From Sphingomonadales bacterium (GTDB taxonomy: Bacteria > Pseudomonadota > Alphaproteobacteria > Sphingomonadales > Sphingomonadaceae): a DNA stretch of 64,000 bases. Position 1 is the stretch's first letter. Each line of letters opens with the position of its first letter. Positions 411-5,933 of the stretch are shown here, piece by piece. The stretch is taken from assembly GCA_043771985.1 (NCBI GenBank), contig JAYVGQ010000100.1, forward strand, positions 19,700 to 83,699, given 5' to 3'. The position numbers and the translations under genes are program-made. The notes beneath the pieces were generated by a model. That model saw only the letters and a program-made list of their open reading frames with translations, made no database searches and had not been told where the DNA came from.

Positions 411-528
411 GCGGATAAGCCTTCTAAAAACAATAGCATGTAAAATGATATTTGCGCTATCAGGTAACGTATCTATCGGAAACGGGGCATTAGGCAGACA
501 GTCATGCAAGCATCGACGCAAGCATGCA

Positions 529-1035
529 ATGGGGGCGGCAATCAATGATTTTTTTGGCCATTACAGTCTAAAGCACATGGAGGTTGCGACGATCCAGCGT
601 TTGACCGAGCGTCAGAAAGATTGCCTGCGTTTGGTTGCGCAGGGCTATACTTCTAAAGAAATTGGGCGGGCGCTAGACCTTTCGCCGAGCACTGTTGATA
701 ACCATATCCTAACAGCAGTTCAATCGATGAACGCCAGTAGCCGCGGTGAAGCGGCGCGTTCTTTGACCAGTATCGAAACTAGGCAAAAACTGCCTAGGGA
801 ATCACAAGCCCTTGCCGAATCAGCGCAATCCGGGCTTTTGTCGGCCACGGCGGAAACGCCAGAGTTAGCATTAAGGAATCGCAAACTCTGGTCACTTCCG
901 CCCATCGGAGGGCAAAAGAATGAACTTGATAGTGCAGAAAGGTCGCTTCGCATCATCCAAGTTGCCGCGGTTGGGTTTGGGACCATAATGAGCCTGACCC
1001 TGCTGATTGCAGGAGCATTCAAAATTTTCAGCTAA
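529..1035 (+). CDS. LuxR/GerE-type HTH regulator with C-terminal transmembrane helix
   Basis: LTERQKDCLRLVAQGYTSKEIGRALDLSPSTVDNHI is a LuxR HTH; hydrophobic tail IIQVAAVGFGTIMSLTLLIAGAFKIF. Start is ATG 529 or ATG 577; the 331 start overlaps nhaA. Confidence 0.85.
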   Translation: MGAAINDFFGHYSLKHMEVATIQRLTERQKDCLRLVAQGYTSKEIGRALDLSPSTVDNHILTAVQSMNASSRGEAARSLTSIETRQKLPRESQALAESAQSGLLSATAETPELALRNRKLWSLPPIGGQKNELDSAERSLRIIQVAAVGFGTIMSLTLLIAGAFKIFS

Positions 1036-1099
1036 GGCTGACTTATCCAATAACTCGACCACATCGCGCTGTTGCAACTGCAATGGCGAAGGAGGAAAC

Positions 1100-1462
1100 A
1101 TGCTTAACATCCAAGATAACATCGGATTGCTTGTCGCTGAAGAAACACAAGGTGCGTTGCGCGCTATTGATGATGCCATTTTAACAAAACTTCGTCTGTG
1201 TACAACTTTGGTCGAGGCATTCGAAGAGACGAACTTGCCCGTCGGACCAAGCCAGAAATTGCTGCAGTCCATCGCAGCGGGGCTGAATCACATTGTTGCT
1301 GGTCGTGGCGAAATGGCACAAACAGTGCGAACGCTCACCGCGATCAAGACAGCCAGCAGCTTGCGGGAAACCAGCTATAATTGCCCCGGACCAACCCCGC
1401 CATTATCGGTTGTATCAGCAACACACCAGGACGCCGCCTGCCCAGTCGCTGCTTTTGGCTGA
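1100..1462 (+). CDS. Hypothetical 120-aa helical protein with Cys-Pro-containing C-terminal tail
   Basis: Strong SD AAGGAGG at 1089-1095 before ATG 1100; amphipathic helical body followed by ETSYNCPGP...DAACPVAAFG. Confidence 0.8.
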   Translation: MLNIQDNIGLLVAEETQGALRAIDDAILTKLRLCTTLVEAFEETNLPVGPSQKLLQSIAAGLNHIVAGRGEMAQTVRTLTAIKTASSLRETSYNCPGPTPPLSVVSATHQDAACPVAAFG

Positions 1463-1505
1463 TGTTCGTGGGTGGCTTTCAACTGCAGCATAGGGATCAG
1501 GAAAT

Positions 1506-1919
1506 ATGTTAATTATCGTCCTGGTCTGGATGTTGTTAGTGCTATGCAGCGTTTATGCCGCCGTCGCAGGGGGAACCACCGGCCGGATCGGCGCGGCGTT
1601 GAACGCTGGCGCGACGATCGCAACGTTATTCGCCCAATATGCAATGCCATGGTCCCAAACGCACGTTCCAGTCCTAATTGTCGATATGATGTTGATGGGT
1701 GCACTGTTTGCACTGGCGATGAAAAGCCAAGTATACTGGCCAATCTGGGCGGCGGGATTTCACCTGATAACTGTCACAGGACATGCCGCAACGCTGATAG
1801 TGCCCGATTTTCGCGCATCGCTGTATTACTACTTCAACGGCATGTGGGCCATTTTCGTACAGATGGCGATGGTTTGGGGAATAACCCTTGATCGCATGAT
1901 GATACCAAAACGAATTTAG
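1506..1919 (+). CDS. Hypothetical polytopic membrane protein (about 4-5 TM)
   Basis: 137 aa, almost entirely hydrophobic segments; VD and YWPIWAAGFHL segments; AGGA-like SD upstream. Confidence 0.85.
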   Translation: MLIIVLVWMLLVLCSVYAAVAGGTTGRIGAALNAGATIATLFAQYAMPWSQTHVPVLIVDMMLMGALFALAMKSQVYWPIWAAGFHLITVTGHAATLIVPDFRASLYYYFNGMWAIFVQMAMVWGITLDRMMIPKRI

Positions 1920-2050: not shown

Positions 2051-3448
2051 ATGGACGGTCTAGGGGCCTTTATATTCCACGCGCGTGAGGAATTGCTGCT
2101 TTTTGGCGGATTCTGGTTCCTCGTCAGCGGTGTGGACGATCTAGTCGTTGACCTGGTCTGGGGCGGACGTGCGAGTTGGCGCTGGTTTACCAGGTACCGG
2201 AACACGCCCCCGATGCGCGCTGACCAATTGTCTTCACCGATGACGAACAGCCCCTTGGCGGTCTTTGTACCAGCTTGGCAGGAATCCGGTGTTGTCGAAC
2301 GGATGTTATCGAACTGCCTCTCTAGCTGGCAGCATTCGGGCGTCACCTATCGCATTTATGTTGGCTGCTATGCGAATGACCCTGCAAGTATCAGCGCCGT
2401 CATCGCTGCAGGATCGCAGAGCCGGCACATCCGGCTAGTGCTTTGCAAAACGCCGGGCCCAACGACGAAGGCCGATTGTCTTAATAGCCTTTGGCACGCG
2501 CTCACCCGCGACGAGCTCGCCGGAGGGTACAAAGCAAAGGCAGTCATTCTGCATGATGCCGAGGATTACGTACATCGGCTGGAACTGCGCGTTTACGACT
2601 ATTTAATTGAACGCGCGGCTGCTGTCCAATTGCCGGTTATCCCGATTGCGGTGAATGGTTCTGCATGGATCAGTGGCCATTATGGCGACGAATTCGCAGA
2701 AGCGCATGGTAAATCATTGGTCGTGCGTGAAGCCATTGGCGCCTCGGTTCCACTGGCGGGCGTTGGCTGCGCGATAGAGCGTAACCGGCTAGGGCGCATT
2801 GCCATCGCCCGCAACGGCGAGCCATTTGACGCCACCAGCCTGACCGAGGATTATGAGCTTGGGCTCGGCCTTGGTGCCGACGGCGGTAAAGTGATCTTTG
2901 CGCGGATGCTCGACGAAAAAGGCGCTCTGGTCGGAACGCGGTCGTGCTTTCCTGACACGTTCGAGGCGGCGACACGGCAAAAGGCGCGTTGGATGACAGG
3001 GATCGCGCTTGCCGGTTGGGACCGGCTTGGCTGGCGCGGTGGCGTCAGCGAAACATGGATGCGACTGCGTGACCGTAAAGCGGTATTTGCCGCAATCGTG
3101 TTGACCGCCGCTTATATTTGCATCGCGTTGACCGTCGTTTTAATCGGACTGCAGCATGCACAGCTCTATCGCGCGCCACCGATTTCTGACACCGTTCGGA
3201 CACTAATCTTGCTGACTTTGGTACTGTTGCTCTGGCGGATAGTCGTGCGCTTTATCTTCGTCCGGTTGATGCACGGTACCGGCCAAGCGTTTTTGTCAAT
3301 TCCGCGCACATTCGTTGCCAACATTATCGGCATCGTTGCTGCGCGCCGCGCGTGCTGGAATTACTTACTGCTCATATTCGGTGGGACATTGTGCTGGGAT
3401 AAAACGACGCACATGCATTTTCCCGGCAAGGCGGTGCAGCGTGGCTGA
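2051..3448 (+). CDS. GT2 glycosyltransferase, NfrB (phage N4 adsorption protein B)-like
   Basis: VFVPAWQE, GPTTKADCLN, ILHDAED, LTEDYELG and RQKARWMTGI (QxxRW) motifs, with N- and C-terminal TM segments. Confidence 0.85.
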   Translation: MDGLGAFIFHAREELLLFGGFWFLVSGVDDLVVDLVWGGRASWRWFTRYRNTPPMRADQLSSPMTNSPLAVFVPAWQESGVVERMLSNCLSSWQHSGVTYRIYVGCYANDPASISAVIAAGSQSRHIRLVLCKTPGPTTKADCLNSLWHALTRDELAGGYKAKAVILHDAEDYVHRLELRVYDYLIERAAAVQLPVIPIAVNGSAWISGHYGDEFAEAHGKSLVVREAIGASVPLAGVGCAIERNRLGRIAIARNGEPFDATSLTEDYELGLGLGADGGKVIFARMLDEKGALVGTRSCFPDTFEAATRQKARWMTGIALAGWDRLGWRGGVSETWMRLRDRKAVFAAIVLTAAYICIALTVVLIGLQHAQLYRAPPISDTVRTLILLTLVLLLWRIVVRFIFVRLMHGTGQAFLSIPRTFVANIIGIVAARRACWNYLLLIFGGTLCWDKTTHMHFPGKAVQRG

Positions 3449-4538
3449 TATACGCGGTCGCCCCTTTGCCTATGTTGCGCTGACGCTGTCAGTCTGGGTC
3501 GGTGCGCGGATCGTCATGTCGATGGACAACCATATGGCGCTTGCACCGCTTCCACTTGCGAAAGGCGCAGCGTCGCTTGTTGCGCAACAGACAACTGGCA
3601 CCGCGAGGATCGCTGCCTTTCCAAATCGCGTTAAAAAATTTGACGCGATGCCGCTCAGCCCTCCTCGGCTGCGCCGATACCCAGTTTTAACCAATTCCGG
3701 TCTCACCCCTGCCTACGACCCTTGGCAGGACGGTGGCCGGCCTCCCGGTTTTTCTTTAGCCGCCCTGGTCGCGGATAAAGACGAACCCCAAAGTGCGGGT
3801 AGGGACACCCCCCCGTCCACTACTTTGGCCCGTATGGGGGAGGCTGGCCCGCCAGAGCGAAGGTCTTCGCCGGCCATACGCGGCGGCGCTTTAAGCCGCT
3901 GGGGCGGCGAAGTTTACGCTTACAGCTTTTGGCGACAGTCGACCGGCGATGGTTCGGTTTTAGCCCCTGGCGCGCAATATGGTGGCAGCCAGTCGGGGAT
4001 AATTGGTACATTCGACCCTTTCGGTTCGCCTGATCGCGGACTTAGCATGCTGGCGCGTGGCTCGATAACGCCGGATGGGGATAATCGCGAAGTCGCACTC
4101 GGCATCCGCTGGCGGCCCGGCAGCAACTGGCCGCTGACGGTCAGCGCCGAGCGGCGGTTTCGCGCCGGTGCGCCGGATAGATTTGCTGCCTATTTGGCCG
4201 GTGGCGTTGATTCCCTGCCCATCGCCGGACGTTTGTCGCTCGACGCATTTGGGCAAGCTGGGTACGTAACGGGGAGGGGGAGTGGCGGTTTTTTCGACGC
4301 ACAAGCGAAGGCGATGTACCCGCTAACAAAAATTTCAGGCGTTCCGTTATCTGCCGGTGCAGGCGTCTGGGCGGGTGGGCAAAAGGACGCCCTGCGAGTC
4401 GACGTTGGCCCAACCCTGATTGGGAATATCGACACTGGGCCAACGACCATCTTAATCCAGCTTGATTGGCGGCTCCATGCCGCCGGGAATGCCGAACCAC
4501 AGAATGGGCTGGCGCTGACAATTTCCACCGGCTTTTGA
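3441..4538 (+). CDS. Putative outer-membrane beta-barrel protein with N-terminal anchor (NfrA-like position)
   Basis: GTG start overlaps the GT stop; N-terminal hydrophobic segment, Pro/Ala-rich linker, Gly/aromatic beta-strand-like C-terminal half ending in terminal Phe (LTISTGF). Confidence 0.65.
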   Translation: MADIRGRPFAYVALTLSVWVGARIVMSMDNHMALAPLPLAKGAASLVAQQTTGTARIAAFPNRVKKFDAMPLSPPRLRRYPVLTNSGLTPAYDPWQDGGRPPGFSLAALVADKDEPQSAGRDTPPSTTLARMGEAGPPERRSSPAIRGGALSRWGGEVYAYSFWRQSTGDGSVLAPGAQYGGSQSGIIGTFDPFGSPDRGLSMLARGSITPDGDNREVALGIRWRPGSNWPLTVSAERRFRAGAPDRFAAYLAGGVDSLPIAGRLSLDAFGQAGYVTGRGSGGFFDAQAKAMYPLTKISGVPLSAGAGVWAGGQKDALRVDVGPTLIGNIDTGPTTILIQLDWRLHAAGNAEPQNGLALTISTGF

Positions 4539-4577: not shown

Positions 4578-5933
4578 ATGAAAAAACACACAATATTCCT
4601 GTTGATCGGCGCTGTACTTTCGGTTGCTGCATGCACCGAAAAAGCGGTCGAACGCCCTGTTCCTAAAATTGCCGACATGACCCAAGAAAGTCCGGCGGCG
4701 GACAACAACACAGATGACCAGATGATGGGCATAGCGCATCAATATGTCCGCCTAACGCTGGAGGCGGGAACGCATGAGGCCGAATGGGTCGATGCCTATT
4801 ACGGACCGGAAGACTTGCGAGACTTCGCCAATAAATCTCCGCGCAGCAAAGACGCTGTGCTGACCGAGGTCGCCGCCCTGATCACCCGACTTGATACCAA
4901 AGTGCTGCAAAAGGAATATCGCAAAGATGTGCTCCAGCGCGCCCACGCGTTGCGCGGCATGCTGGTCGCGGCAGATACAAGAATGCGGATGTTGTCAGGA
5001 CAGAAATTTGCGTTCGACGATGAAGCCAAGGGCCAGTTTGCAACGGTGCCCTTGCTGAAACCGCTCAGCCATTATGATGCAATCCTTGACCGCCTTGAAA
5101 AGGAAATCCCCGGCACTGGCCCGCTCGCAACGCGCGTTGATGCGTTTAACGAACGCTTTGTGATCCCCAAAGAGCGGCTGAAGCTCGTTTTCGATGCCGC
5201 TATTGCCGAGTGCCGCAAACGCACTGCCGAGCATATCACACTGCCGACGGACGAAAGTTTCGTCATGGAGTTTGTCACCGGCAAACCGTGGTCGGGCTAT
5301 AATTATTATCAGGGTAAATATAAAAGCCTGATCCAGATCAACACTGACCTGCCGATCCGTATAAGCCGCGCGGTCGACCTTGGCTGTCATGAAGGCTATC
5401 CGGGTCACCATGTCCTAAACCTGATGATCGAGAGCAAGCTGTATCGCGGTAAGAACTGGACCGAGTTTTCGGTCAACCCGCTGTATTCGCCGCAAAGCGT
5501 GATTAGCGAAGGCAGCGCCAATTATGGCATCGACTTGGCGTTTTCCCCCAGTGAAAGATTGCAGTTTGAACGCAACGTTCTCTATCCGTTGGCGGGGTTG
5601 GACCCAAAAACGGCTGAGGCGTTTTGGAAGCTGCAACAAGCGACAGAGTCGCTTTCCGGCGCGCGGTTAACGATTGCCAAGCTCTATCTCGACGGCGAAA
5701 TTGACCGCCCACAGGCATTAGCGCTGACCGCGAAGTATCTGCTCGTCAGCCCCGAGCGCGCGGCGCAATCGGTTGGCTTTACCGATCATTATCGCAGCTA
5801 TGTGATCAACTATGGCTGGGGCAAAGAGCTGGTAAAAGGCTATGTCGAGCGCGGCAACCCGGACACGAACGAACGCTGGCGGCGGATGGAAAAAATACTG
5901 TCAGAGCCGGTGCTGCCTGCGGATTTGCAATAG
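4578..5933 (+). CDS. Lipoprotein, DUF885-like putative metallopeptidase
   Basis: Lipobox VAAC19; motif CHEGYPGHH plus downstream SEGSANY resemble the DUF885 HExxPGHH / EGxA motifs. Confidence 0.65.
   Translation: MKKHTIFLLIGAVLSVAACTEKAVERPVPKIADMTQESPAADNNTDDQMMGIAHQYVRLTLEAGTHEAEWVDAYYGPEDLRDFANKSPRSKDAVLTEVAALITRLDTKVLQKEYRKDVLQRAHALRGMLVAADTRMRMLSGQKFAFDDEAKGQFATVPLLKPLSHYDAILDRLEKEIPGTGPLATRVDAFNERFVIPKERLKLVFDAAIAECRKRTAEHITLPTDESFVMEFVTGKPWSGYNYYQGKYKSLIQINTDLPIRISRAVDLGCHEGYPGHHVLNLMIESKLYRGKNWTEFSVNPLYSPQSVISEGSANYGIDLAFSPSERLQFERNVLYPLAGLDPKTAEAFWKLQQATESLSGARLTIAKLYLDGEIDRPQALALTAKYLLVSPERAAQSVGFTDHYRSYVINYGWGKELVKGYVERGNPDTNERWRRMEKILSEPVLPADLQ

Follow-up and report, generated by a model that had tools for sequence, protein, structure and literature searches.

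A three-gene cassette of Sphingomonadales that looks like a membrane-anchored gene-regulation switch

Introduction

What is controlled, and by what signal, when a LuxR-type regulator bearing a membrane helix is encoded beside a small cysteine-bearing protein and a small protein made almost wholly of membrane segments? This question is raised by three adjoining genes, g1, g2 and g3, near one end of a 64,000-nucleotide stretch of contig JAYVGQ010000100.1 from a Sphingomonadales bacterium; we refer to this whole stretch as the window. The Sphingomonadales are widespread in fresh water, in soil and on plant surfaces, and some strains have been studied for biodegradation and for gum production. To our knowledge, the regulation of their surface polysaccharides has not been well worked out. 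A first-pass annotation of the window offered two ideas about the trio: that it is a peptide-signalling circuit resembling those of Gram-positive bacteria, or that it is an envelope-sensing circuit that needs no kinase.

Here, we report a comparative and structure-prediction analysis of g1, g2, g3 and the genes that follow them. The three genes look like a previously undescribed membrane-anchored gene-regulation switch, and a search of the literature on membrane-anchored and tail-anchored LuxR regulators returned no description of the g1-g2-g3 system. Two of its proteins, g2 and g3, represent families that currently have no annotation, and the cassette suggests a means of control for an NfrB-type synthase from which the c-di-GMP-binding domain has been lost.

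Results

The three genes lie on the forward strand as co-oriented open reading frames with short gaps between them (g1, 577-1035; g2, 1100-1462; g3, 1506-1919), as the first-pass annotation had read them, and the same trio in the same order was recovered from every related locus with room for it. This was so in 55 of 55 loci with enough sequence, whether the search was seeded from g2 or from g3; the count comprises 53 of 53 loci from an HMM scan together with L060 and L061, and the metagenome scan used as its query a g2 alignment of narrower diversity. Across loci the two intergenic gaps measure 32-71 nt and 3-82 nt. Thus g1, g2 and g3 form a strict cassette, never found apart among loci with room for all three, and the test of co-occurrence that had been set in advance was passed.

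All trio hosts with reliable names are Sphingomonadales, in agreement with the occurrence in this order given in the first-pass annotation, which had also named the Caulobacterales. Cultured, fully sequenced carriers include Sphingopyxis sp. BSN-002, Sphingobium phenoxybenzoativorans, Alterisphingorhabdus coralli, Erythrobacter arachoides, Novosphingobium sp. KCTC 2891 and Qipengyuania sp. JC766. The sole candidate from outside the order, a contig of a metagenome-assembled genome named "Henriciella", was set aside as probably mis-binned, because its flanking gene is 82-89% identical to Erythrobacteraceae loci. The window's own locus occurs in freshwater, sediment and hot-spring metagenomes only, and no RNA runs containing it were found. 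Positions 529-1919, which had been described as an AT-richer stretch, are so only modestly: their GC content is 51.6%, that of the window is 56.5%, and among stretches of equal size they rank at the 5th percentile. Among the called genes beside the trio, in those loci whose annotation was read, neither an AHL synthase nor a kinase was seen, in line with the suggestion that the system needs neither. Two apparent gene fusions were rejected as Rosetta-stone evidence: a g2-g3 fusion (P0181) comes from a long-read contig of 1.94x coverage and is also at odds with the predicted topology of g3, and a LuxR-g2 fusion (P0231) comes from a contig of only 758 bp.

In the product of g1, a LuxR/GerE helix-turn-helix (HTH) is followed by a variable linker and the conserved motif PPxGG, and a transmembrane helix lies at the C-terminal end. 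Its match to the Pfam GerE/LuxR HTH model (PF00196; E = 6.4e-15) scores 55 bits against a cut-off of 23.5, over residues 24-77 of a 168-aa reading, which places it in the LuxR/FixJ (GerE) HTH superfamily. That longer reading starts at 529, and here the earlier call did not hold: the start is the ATG at 577, giving a protein of 152 aa, because an in-frame stop separates 529 from 577 in L001 and L007, related loci keep the ATG, and the length of distant homologues is 151-153 aa. In the corrected frame the HTH occupies residues 8-61 (nt 598-759) and a hydrophobic helix residues 126-148, an arrangement kept in the 37 non-redundant homologues that gave the family consensus; in the window the PPxGG motif reads LPPIGGQKNEL (895-927). 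The helix is a 23-residue hydrophobic segment, IIQVAAVGFGTIMSLTLLIAGAF (952-1020), after which only 4 residues remain. Together with the HTH score, this hydrophobic end upholds the original description of g1 as a LuxR HTH with a C-terminal membrane segment and no ligand-binding domain. GerE and related HTH models are the sole Pfam matches, none of them to an autoinducer-binding domain, and the HTH begins 8 residues after the corrected start. Nor was a receiver domain found: NCBIfam matches span only the C-terminal HTH part of their models and fall far below the cut-offs. The protein therefore belongs neither with the AHL-responsive LuxR receptors nor with the NarL/FixJ response regulators. Judged from its sequence, g1 has a complete LuxR-type DNA-binding domain that is predicted to be anchored in the inner membrane by the C-terminal helix. 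An invariant cysteine in the HTH, within RQKDCL (610-627), falls at a position where, as we take the GerE consensus to indicate, LuxR HTHs usually have a buried valine; this cysteine may be merely structural.

Several signals precede the coding sequences. In the divergent intergenic region between nhaA and g1, an element of the form ATAGCA-N17-GCTATC (433..461, forward strand) is the only conserved block in an upstream alignment of 11 loci of the clade, and it may act in a promoter-like manner; a sigma-70 consensus scan did not list it. No operator upstream of g1 is shared across lineages, and only an enriched ATTGGC hexamer and lineage-specific palindromes were seen. An upstream element common to some lineages matches neither a tRNA nor an Rfam family. 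Ahead of g1 lies an 8-codon open reading frame (MIFLAITV, then a stop; 545..571, forward strand), preceded by GGGGG (531-535), whose stop falls 5 nt before the g1 ATG. A reading frame of the same length and position is present in L001, L002, L003, L005 and L007 by frame translation, in L004 by alignment, and in L008 with a GTG start; across loci the ATG and stop are conserved and the peptide is variable. Its translation could be coupled to that of g1, whose start has no Shine-Dalgarno (SD) sequence. An AGGAG-type SD stands ahead of g2 in nearly all loci; in the window it is the strong GAAGGAGG (1088..1095, forward strand), directly preceded by a 9-bp GC-rich hairpin (1067..1088, forward strand; RNAfold, -12.6 kcal/mol). 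Hairpins of differing sequence occupy the same place in most loci, with modest z-scores (mean -0.8).

The g2 protein (1100..1462, forward strand; 120 aa) is modelled by AF2 as two long helices, residues 4-43 and 48-85, with disorder at residues 94-120. A conserved motif, SNLxExxFGCP in the family and SSLRETSYNCP in the window (1355-1387; Cys95 codon, 1382-1384), leads into the disordered tail, which spans 1388-1459 and ends in -FG. Two Cys-Pro dipeptides are present: C95-P96 is invariant in the close family, and C114-P115 is found in the window's lineage only. The helices, the SD and the Cys-Pro tail had all been anticipated, and all three were recovered. In the wide family the cysteine is at least 90% conserved, as is Gly-Cys among 96 diverse g2 proteins, and proline follows it in only 67 of about 111 clusters. 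Column identity drops from 0.79 in the 95-residue helical body and the stretch leading up to the cysteine to 0.38 in the tail beyond it, and 26 of 110 tails end in -AA or -VA. The N-terminus, which is modelled as part of helix 1, is acidic and has no hydrophobic stretch beyond a short run, and on this reading of the sequence g2 appears to have no export signal. We found about 135 clusters of the family at 50% identity among 1.84 billion representatives. No match to g2 was found in Pfam, NCBIfam or PADLOC, and scans of 96 of its homologues were likewise empty; a search for the TraM family was negative at E<=1 in Pfam (96 members) and in PDB sequences, a PDB sequence search with the g2 profile gave nothing meaningful, and a Foldseek comparison of the AF2 model with the PDB yielded nothing beyond generic matches to coiled coils or helical bundles (E >0.6). 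By these models and alignments, g2 is predicted to be soluble and cytoplasmic, with two antiparallel helices and, ahead of a disordered tail, a Gly-Cys(-Pro) motif that is nearly invariant.

The third protein, g3 (1506..1919, forward strand; 137 aa), is an integral membrane protein of five helices. Its AF2 model (pLDDT 87.6) is almost entirely membrane helices, as had been noted from the sequence at first reading, and the predicted topology is N-out/C-in. The family consensus contains three conserved motifs, GGxxGR (1569-1586), YWPIW (1734-1748) and LDR (1884-1895), all on the forward strand; the positive-inside pattern and the charge distribution of the family put them on the cytoplasmic face. 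Asp60 is invariant and membrane-embedded. His86, His93 and Cys14 are not kept across the family, in which no cysteine or histidine is conserved. The family numbers at least 134 clusters at 90% identity. Searches of Pfam, NCBIfam and PADLOC with g3 gave no match, nor did scans of 23 homologues, no AgrB or protease family or motif was recognised in g3, and Foldseek of its model against the PDB again returned only generic coiled-coil or helical-bundle matches (E >0.6).

In the window the trio is followed by g4 (2051..3448, forward strand), which encodes an NfrB-like family-2 glycosyltransferase, or synthase, of 465 aa (Pfam Glyco_tranf_2_3). It scores 518 bits against NCBIfam NF011307 (cut-off 431), which assigns it to the GT2 synthase core of the PRK14716/NfrB group. 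Its match to the NfrB model covers positions 20-474 of 723 only, at 325 bits against a cut-off of 1170, and the C-terminal MshEN c-di-GMP-binding domain is absent. The GTG start of g5 (3441..4538, forward strand; 365 aa) overlaps the g4 stop by 8 nt, and g5 comes next in every locus where g4 is present and the contig extends past it. With a hydrophobic N-terminal segment and a C-terminus of ...LALTISTGF, g5 is a putative outer-membrane partner of the synthase; it has no Pfam match and no meaningful PDB match.

Elsewhere the trio is usually followed by nothing, and sometimes by a gene of MarR-like or LysR type. In most loci the next gene beyond g3 is convergent, and the trio can therefore stand alone. 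The g4-g5 pair comes straight after it in two distinct clades, the window's own and that of L050-L052; in L021 a glycosyltransferase gene and g5 adjoin it in another arrangement, a divergent one. The available flanks of most trio loci contain no glycosyltransferase gene, and no trio lies within 7 kb of the closest g4 homologue of a cultured strain, which is on a Sphingomonas parapaucimobilis plasmid (47.7% identity). The link between the trio and exopolysaccharide is therefore lineage-specific; in the window's lineage, the trio probably drives the exopolysaccharide genes.

Discussion

These results are consistent with a self-contained regulatory cassette in which a tail-anchored LuxR regulator is controlled by its membrane partner, g3, and by the Cys-bearing g2, a proposal to which we give somewhat less than an even chance. 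The three proteins would form one membrane complex with g1 as its transcriptional output, and g3 would hold or gate g1 through the transmembrane helix and the juxtamembrane PPxGG segment. The g2 protein could serve as a cytoplasmic modulator, either an anti-activator or an adaptor. Because g2 has a strong SD and g1 has none, we propose that g2 is made in excess over g1, as in sigma/anti-sigma or TraR/TraM pairs. The g2 cysteine would be the likely site of input (thiol, redox, metal or heme), and the Ala-rich C-terminal ends in many g2 clades may confer proteolytic instability. The targets would be the cassette itself and adjoining genes, in the window the synthase-dependent exopolysaccharide system of g4 and g5; this system is without the c-di-GMP-binding domain present in E. 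coli NfrB and may therefore be under transcriptional control instead. The genes found after the trio (MarR-like, LysR, glycosyltransferase with g5) are regulatory or plausible targets, and we counted them in favour of the cassette model. Against it we counted the generic coiled-coil hairpin of g2, which has no specific structural neighbour, and both the want of an operator common to the lineages and the incomplete conservation of the proline after the g2 cysteine. A narrower version, in which the LuxR protein is switched by a five-helix sensor while the g2 cysteine reads cytoplasmic thiol, heme or metal, possibly by way of g2 degradation, is unlikely; if true, this kinase-free unit would couple membrane or redox state to the transcription of surface-polysaccharide and other genes across the Sphingomonadales.

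Other explanations have to be set against the cassette. The possibility that the three genes are neighbours by shared ancestry only, with no common function, deserves almost no weight: in the Sphingorhabdus clade the entire neighbourhood, from nhaA to the ETF genes, is syntenic, so conservation of the trio there proves little, but the trio stays intact amid wholly different flanks in Sphingobium, Sphingopyxis, Novosphingobium, Erythrobacter, Qipengyuania, Alterisphingorhabdus and many metagenomic lineages, across which the g2 proteins are only about 20-40% identical. We also regard it as very improbable that g2 is a peptide-pheromone precursor, processed at Cys-Pro by an AgrB-like g3 and sensed through g1. 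An invariant cysteine followed by a variable tail of 14-34 residues, a small multi-pass membrane protein encoded next door and the strict co-occurrence of the genes would all suit such a circuit. However, the conserved part of g2 is its long helical body and the fast-evolving part its disordered tail, and a precursor would be expected to show the reverse, or at least a short conserved core. Neither a signal peptide nor a double-glycine leader can be read in g2, and no exporter, transporter or peptidase gene was seen beside the trio in the annotated loci that were read. Pfam gives no AgrB or AgrD match for g2, g3 or 96 and 23 diverse members of their families, and g3 has none of the conserved histidine and cysteine expected of an agr-type catalytic site. 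With so little of g1 beyond the membrane there is no external receptor, and none of the called genes beside the trio in those loci encodes an agr-type membrane histidine kinase. The agr-like half of the first-pass proposal is thus not supported, and its other half, an envelope- or membrane-sensing circuit that works without a kinase, is compatible with the data.

Two further alternatives leave the trio a shared function and assign it differently. The g2 and g3 proteins, together with g1, could be post-translational subunits or regulators of the NfrB-like synthase that replace its missing c-di-GMP-binding domain, just as PgaD serves PgaC and ExoX serves ExoY. Both the position of the trio directly upstream of g4-g5, or adjacent to them in L021, and the truncation of g4 fit this idea; the many trios with no glycosyltransferase gene nearby and the plasmid-borne g4 homologue with no trio do not, and such a role needs no DNA-binding domain, so that we consider it distinctly unlikely. 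Rather less improbable, though still unlikely, is regulated release, in which g1 would be inactive at the membrane until cut free near PPxGG or within the transmembrane helix, with g3 as gate or protease and g2 as inhibitor or substrate adaptor. A tail anchor with a conserved motif about 14 residues before the membrane, the buried Asp60 and cytoplasmic LDR of g3 and the degron-like ends of many g2 proteins point in this direction. Yet neither a protease motif nor a family match can be recognised in g3, the trio has no linked protease gene, and the disordered linker of g1, at 60-100 residues, is long enough for it to bind DNA while tethered, as ToxR and CadC do.

The cassette proposed here shares features with several known systems. 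Like agrBDCA of the Firmicutes, it encodes a transcription regulator together with two adjoining small proteins, one that contains Cys and one that is a polytopic membrane protein, but it has no homology to AgrB, AgrD or AgrC, no export route and no sensor kinase, and its pattern of conservation is reversed. The Gly-Cys-Pro of g2 recalls a heme-regulatory (CP) motif in that it lies in an unstructured segment (pLDDT below 50 in the AF2 model), as in an alphaproteobacterial regulatory protein, and often has an aromatic residue nearby ([FY]-G/N-C-P, or GCPW in some members). This is a resemblance only. No more than about 60% of g2 clusters have the proline, and the trio has no linked heme-related genes.

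The cargo of the window's lineage invites comparison with E. coli NfrB/NfrA, a c-di-GMP-activated exopolysaccharide system (PMC8669469, PMC8669472). In both, the gene for a synthase of the same GT2 family comes ahead of one whose product is probably an outer-membrane component, but g4 ends at 465 aa before any MshEN domain, g5 is unrelated in sequence to any annotated family and a LuxR-containing trio precedes the locus.

TraM, QslA and Aqs1 belong to an established class of small proteins that antagonise LuxR-type regulators by binding them, and a role in promoting target proteolysis has been proposed for TraM as well (PMC13043044). As in TraR/TraM, LasR/QslA and LasR/Aqs1, a small protein of ~100-120 aa is encoded beside a LuxR-family regulator, and the translation signals make a stoichiometric excess of g2 plausible, as for TraM. 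The likeness ends where g1 proves to be membrane-anchored and without an autoinducer-binding domain, where a third, membrane-protein partner is obligatory, and where g2 has no Pfam TraM match; TraM itself is a helical hairpin.

The trio also resembles ToxR/ToxS, TcpP/TcpH, VtrA/VtrC and CadC in its architecture: in g1 a cytoplasmic DNA-binding domain at the N-terminus is joined by a flexible linker to one transmembrane helix, an accessory membrane protein is encoded in the same operon, and no kinase takes part. ToxR, TcpP, VtrA and CadC use a winged helix of the OmpR type and have a sensor domain in the periplasm, whereas g1 has a LuxR/GerE HTH, essentially nothing past the membrane and two accessory proteins, one of them soluble and neither related in sequence to ToxS or TcpH. 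The cassette would extend this short list of membrane-bound transcription regulators by one that combines a LuxR-type domain, a tail anchor and two obligatory partners and has no periplasmic sensor.

Organization and distribution of the cassette

Next to an NhaA-type antiporter gene, whose N-terminal part lies on the minus strand from position 1 to about 417 (minus-strand translation, and a Na_H_antiport_1 gene at the corresponding position of related loci), the window carries five co-directional genes on the plus strand. The first, g1 (start ATG probably at 577), encodes a LuxR/GerE helix-turn-helix protein; g2 (1100-1462) and g3 (1506-1919) encode proteins of 120 and 137 residues; g4 (2051-3448) encodes a family-2 glycosyltransferase, and g5 (3441-4538) begins with a GTG at 3441. 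As the first-pass annotation had stated, the first three genes occupy an AT-richer stretch, the GC content of 529-1919 being 51.6% versus 56.5% for the window (5th percentile of windows of the same size).

Five independent search routes converged on one and the same cassette of g1, g2, and g3. A genome scan seeded with g3 returned eight loci, all in Sphingorhabdus or Sphingomonadales MAGs and each with g1 to g5 in order. Distant g2 homologues (approximately 50% identity) led to the same locus, and more distant representatives to the cassette in Alterisphingorhabdus coralli, Sphingobium phenoxybenzoativorans, and one MAG. The pattern SNLx[ET][VT][SAG]FGC identified 31 loci in a metagenome scan, and a g3-profile search yielded 134 proteins, all single-domain and 129-155 residues long, with matches traced to Sphingopyxis sp. 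BSN-002, Erythrobacter arachoides, Novosphingobium sp. KCTC 2891, and Qipengyuania sp. JC766. When purpose-built HMMs were applied to all loci, each of the 53 loci with enough sequence had the three genes in order and in the same orientation, a count that excludes six loci cut by contig ends; with two further loci (L060 and L061) the ordered trio stands at 55 of 55, which bears out the co-occurrence and gene order proposed at the outset. The spacers measure 32-71 nt between g1 and g2 and 3-82 nt between g2 and g3. Because the flanking genes are wholly different between genera, this linkage is not inherited synteny.

All named hosts, which account for a minority of the sequences, are Sphingomonadales, with the exception of a 2.6-kb contig binned as Henriciella (JAPOGQ010046310.1; L054-L056) that carries the trio. 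This contig is probably mis-binned, since its DUF2726 neighbour is 82-89% identical to genes beside the cassettes of E. arachoides and another Erythrobacteraceae locus (L033). Two apparent fusions, g2-g3 (P0181, L017 1019-1792) on a long-read contig of 1.94x coverage and LuxR-g2 (P0231) on a 758-bp contig, were set aside; the contigs are poor, the g2-g3 fusion is at odds with the predicted topology of g3, and both may be assembly artefacts.

Conserved features of the three proteins

The g1 product contains a GerE domain (55 bits, Pfam) and no receiver or autoinducer-binding domain detectable with Pfam or NCBIfam, and its C-terminal 27 residues consist of a hydrophobic helix and four further residues. 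A LuxR protein that lacks a ligand-binding domain and has a C-terminal transmembrane segment had been predicted in the first-pass annotation, and this description stands. The start that it gave, 529, probably lies 48 nt upstream of the true one: 529 and 577 are separated by an in-frame stop in two related loci (L001 and L007), the ATG at the latter position is conserved, and distant homologues have lengths of 151-153 residues. Thirty-seven non-redundant g1 proteins have in common LTxRQxxCL, with an invariant Cys, TVDxH, the C-terminal transmembrane segment, and, after a linker of variable length, PPxGGxxN some 14 residues ahead of the membrane.

The proposed g2 and g3 products, a helical protein and a protein made almost entirely of membrane segments, were also recovered by structure prediction. 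The g3 model is a membrane-helix bundle of high confidence (pLDDT 87.6), and 35 non-redundant members share G22, D60, A71, W78-P79-x-W81, W114, G125, and D129; His86, His93, and Cys14 are invariant among close relatives only and disappear in the wider family. Positive charges are concentrated in loop 1 (GGxxGR), in loop 3 ahead of YWPIW, and at the C-terminus (LDR), a distribution that argues for five transmembrane helices oriented N-out/C-in and would thus place these three motifs on the cytoplasmic face.

The g2 model comprises two long antiparallel helices (residues 4-43 and 48-85) and a tail disordered from residue 94. Its N-terminus is acidic, with a short hydrophobic run that forms part of helix 1, and no export signal could be read from this sequence or the model. 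In the close family, mean column identity is 0.79 over residues 1-96, 0.38 over the tail (97-118), and 0.75 at the terminal -FG. Searching 1.84 billion representatives with a g2 profile gave 135 clusters, almost all of 110-125 residues. At least 90% conservation across 96 diverse members is confined to Ala13, Gln52, Arg69, Ser86, Gly94, and Cys95, and the family signature is SNLxExx[FY]GC(P); a Pro comes directly after the Cys in 67 of about 111 clusters. The window protein has a further Cys-Pro (C114-P115), which is restricted to its own lineage. The tail beyond the Cys is 14-34 residues long (median 22), with a high content of Ala, Pro, and Gly, and its last two residues are -AA or -VA in 26 of 110 clusters. 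We take these Ala-rich ends to resemble ssrA-like degrons, which would fit control through g2 turnover.

No relatives of g2 or g3 were found in Pfam, NCBIfam, PADLOC, or the PDB; their homologues are called hypothetical proteins in the source databases, and a literature search returned no description of the trio.

Candidate expression signals

Within the clade, the sole conserved block between nhaA and g1 is ATAGCA-N17-GCTATC (433-461), probably the promoter of g1 or of the divergent nhaA. An eight-codon plus-strand ORF, MIFLAITV* (545-571), lies behind a GGGGG Shine-Dalgarno-like run (531-535). Only 5 nt separate its stop from the ATG of g1, and g1 itself lacks a Shine-Dalgarno sequence. The length and position of this small ORF, though not its peptide sequence, are kept in L001-L005, L007, and L008 (GTG start), and it may serve in translational coupling or as a leader peptide. 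A strong Shine-Dalgarno sequence precedes g2 in the window (GAAGGAGG), as the first-pass annotation had noted, and in nearly all loci, where g1 has none. Directly 5' of it, folding revealed a 9-bp GC-rich hairpin (1067-1088). Hairpins of unrelated sequence occupy this place in most loci, with modest folding z-scores (mean -0.8), and may act in intercistronic processing, stability, or attenuation.

Four other loci (L017, L023, L028, and L057) have in common a non-coding element, CTCCGGAGCTATGGCAAATCCGCC, approximately 60-180 nt 5' of g1, which matched nothing in tRNA and Rfam comparisons, and a palindrome centred on CCTAGGC (TTGCCTAGGCAA in L023). Across lineages, the region upstream of g1 is enriched in ATTGGC, which occurs in 11 of 28 loci (2.2 expected). 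All three are candidate operator sites.

Neighbouring polysaccharide genes

In most lineages the gene following the trio is convergent, and the trio is thus a stand-alone operon. Other genera have a fourth gene overlapping g3 at its end, which is a MarR-like winged-helix gene in A. coralli and S. phenoxybenzoativorans (L018 7826-8365; L019 7829-8272) and a LysR gene in the MAG locus L021 (7846-8922). In the window, g4 passes the cut-off of the NCBIfam model NF011307 (518 bits; cut-off 431); its match to the E. coli NfrB model covers the first two thirds only, so that g4 lacks the MshEN c-di-GMP-binding domain. The two genes g4 and g5 are translationally coupled, the g4 stop overlapping the g5 start by 8 nt; the g5 product (365 residues, ending ...LALTISTGF) found no family assignment. 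In part of the clade a predicted 451-residue lipoprotein (4578-5933; N-terminal ...LSVAAC; no Pfam match) follows g5; it is absent from L006, L007, L008, L010, and L013.

Two clades, the window's own and a distinct one (L050-L052), have the NfrB-like synthase and g5 downstream of the trio, and L021 has them upstream in divergent orientation. The best plasmid-borne g4 homologue, in Sphingomonas parapaucimobilis (L016; 47.7% identity), is accompanied by g5, with no trio within 7 kb. In both L021 and L016, genes for TauE and a TIGR02186/Alph_Pro_TM protein come after the synthase-g5 pair, and then one more gene (DUF87 in L021; annotated merely as an ATP-binding protein in L016), which suggests a larger uncharacterised polysaccharide locus. 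From this gene content, the trio appears to be a portable regulatory unit with the polysaccharide genes as one of several cargoes, and their recurrence suggests that in those lineages the regulatory link is genuine.

Discussion

The first-pass annotation had put forward the trio as a candidate agr-like peptide-signalling or envelope-sensing circuit. The peptide-pheromone reading fails on the pattern of g2 conservation, in which the 95-residue helical body up to the Cys is the conserved part and the tail is disordered and fast-evolving. Moreover, no export signal can be read in g2; the annotated loci that were read showed no gene for a transporter, peptidase, or kinase beside the trio; g3 matches neither AgrB nor any other family and has no family-wide Cys or His; and g1 lacks an extracytoplasmic domain. 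The reading that we tentatively favour, at slightly below even odds, is a membrane-tethered regulatory complex, in which g1 would be a tail-anchored DNA-binding regulator, g3 its intramembrane partner, and g2 a cytoplasmic modulator made in excess. The near-invariant g2 Cys, in its flexible segment, would be the most likely site of input. A variant in which g1 acts once freed from the membrane is considerably less probable. Several cultured strains allow the trio to be tested directly.

Within such a tethered complex, g2 would be present in excess, as are anti-sigma factors and LuxR anti-activators, the latter including TraM, QslA, and Aqs1 (PMC13043044). In the window's clade the Gly/Asn-Cys-Pro context of the g2 Cys is similar to Gly-Cys-Pro-Trp-His-Asp, the heme-regulatory CP motif of Irr from alphaproteobacteria (PMC11442138), but the Pro is not universal in the g2 family. 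As a general principle, transcription factors that are bound to the membrane and work with accessory proteins are known; no example is known in which a LuxR helix-turn-helix is joined to a tail anchor, is devoid of a periplasmic domain, and is accompanied by two obligatory partners.
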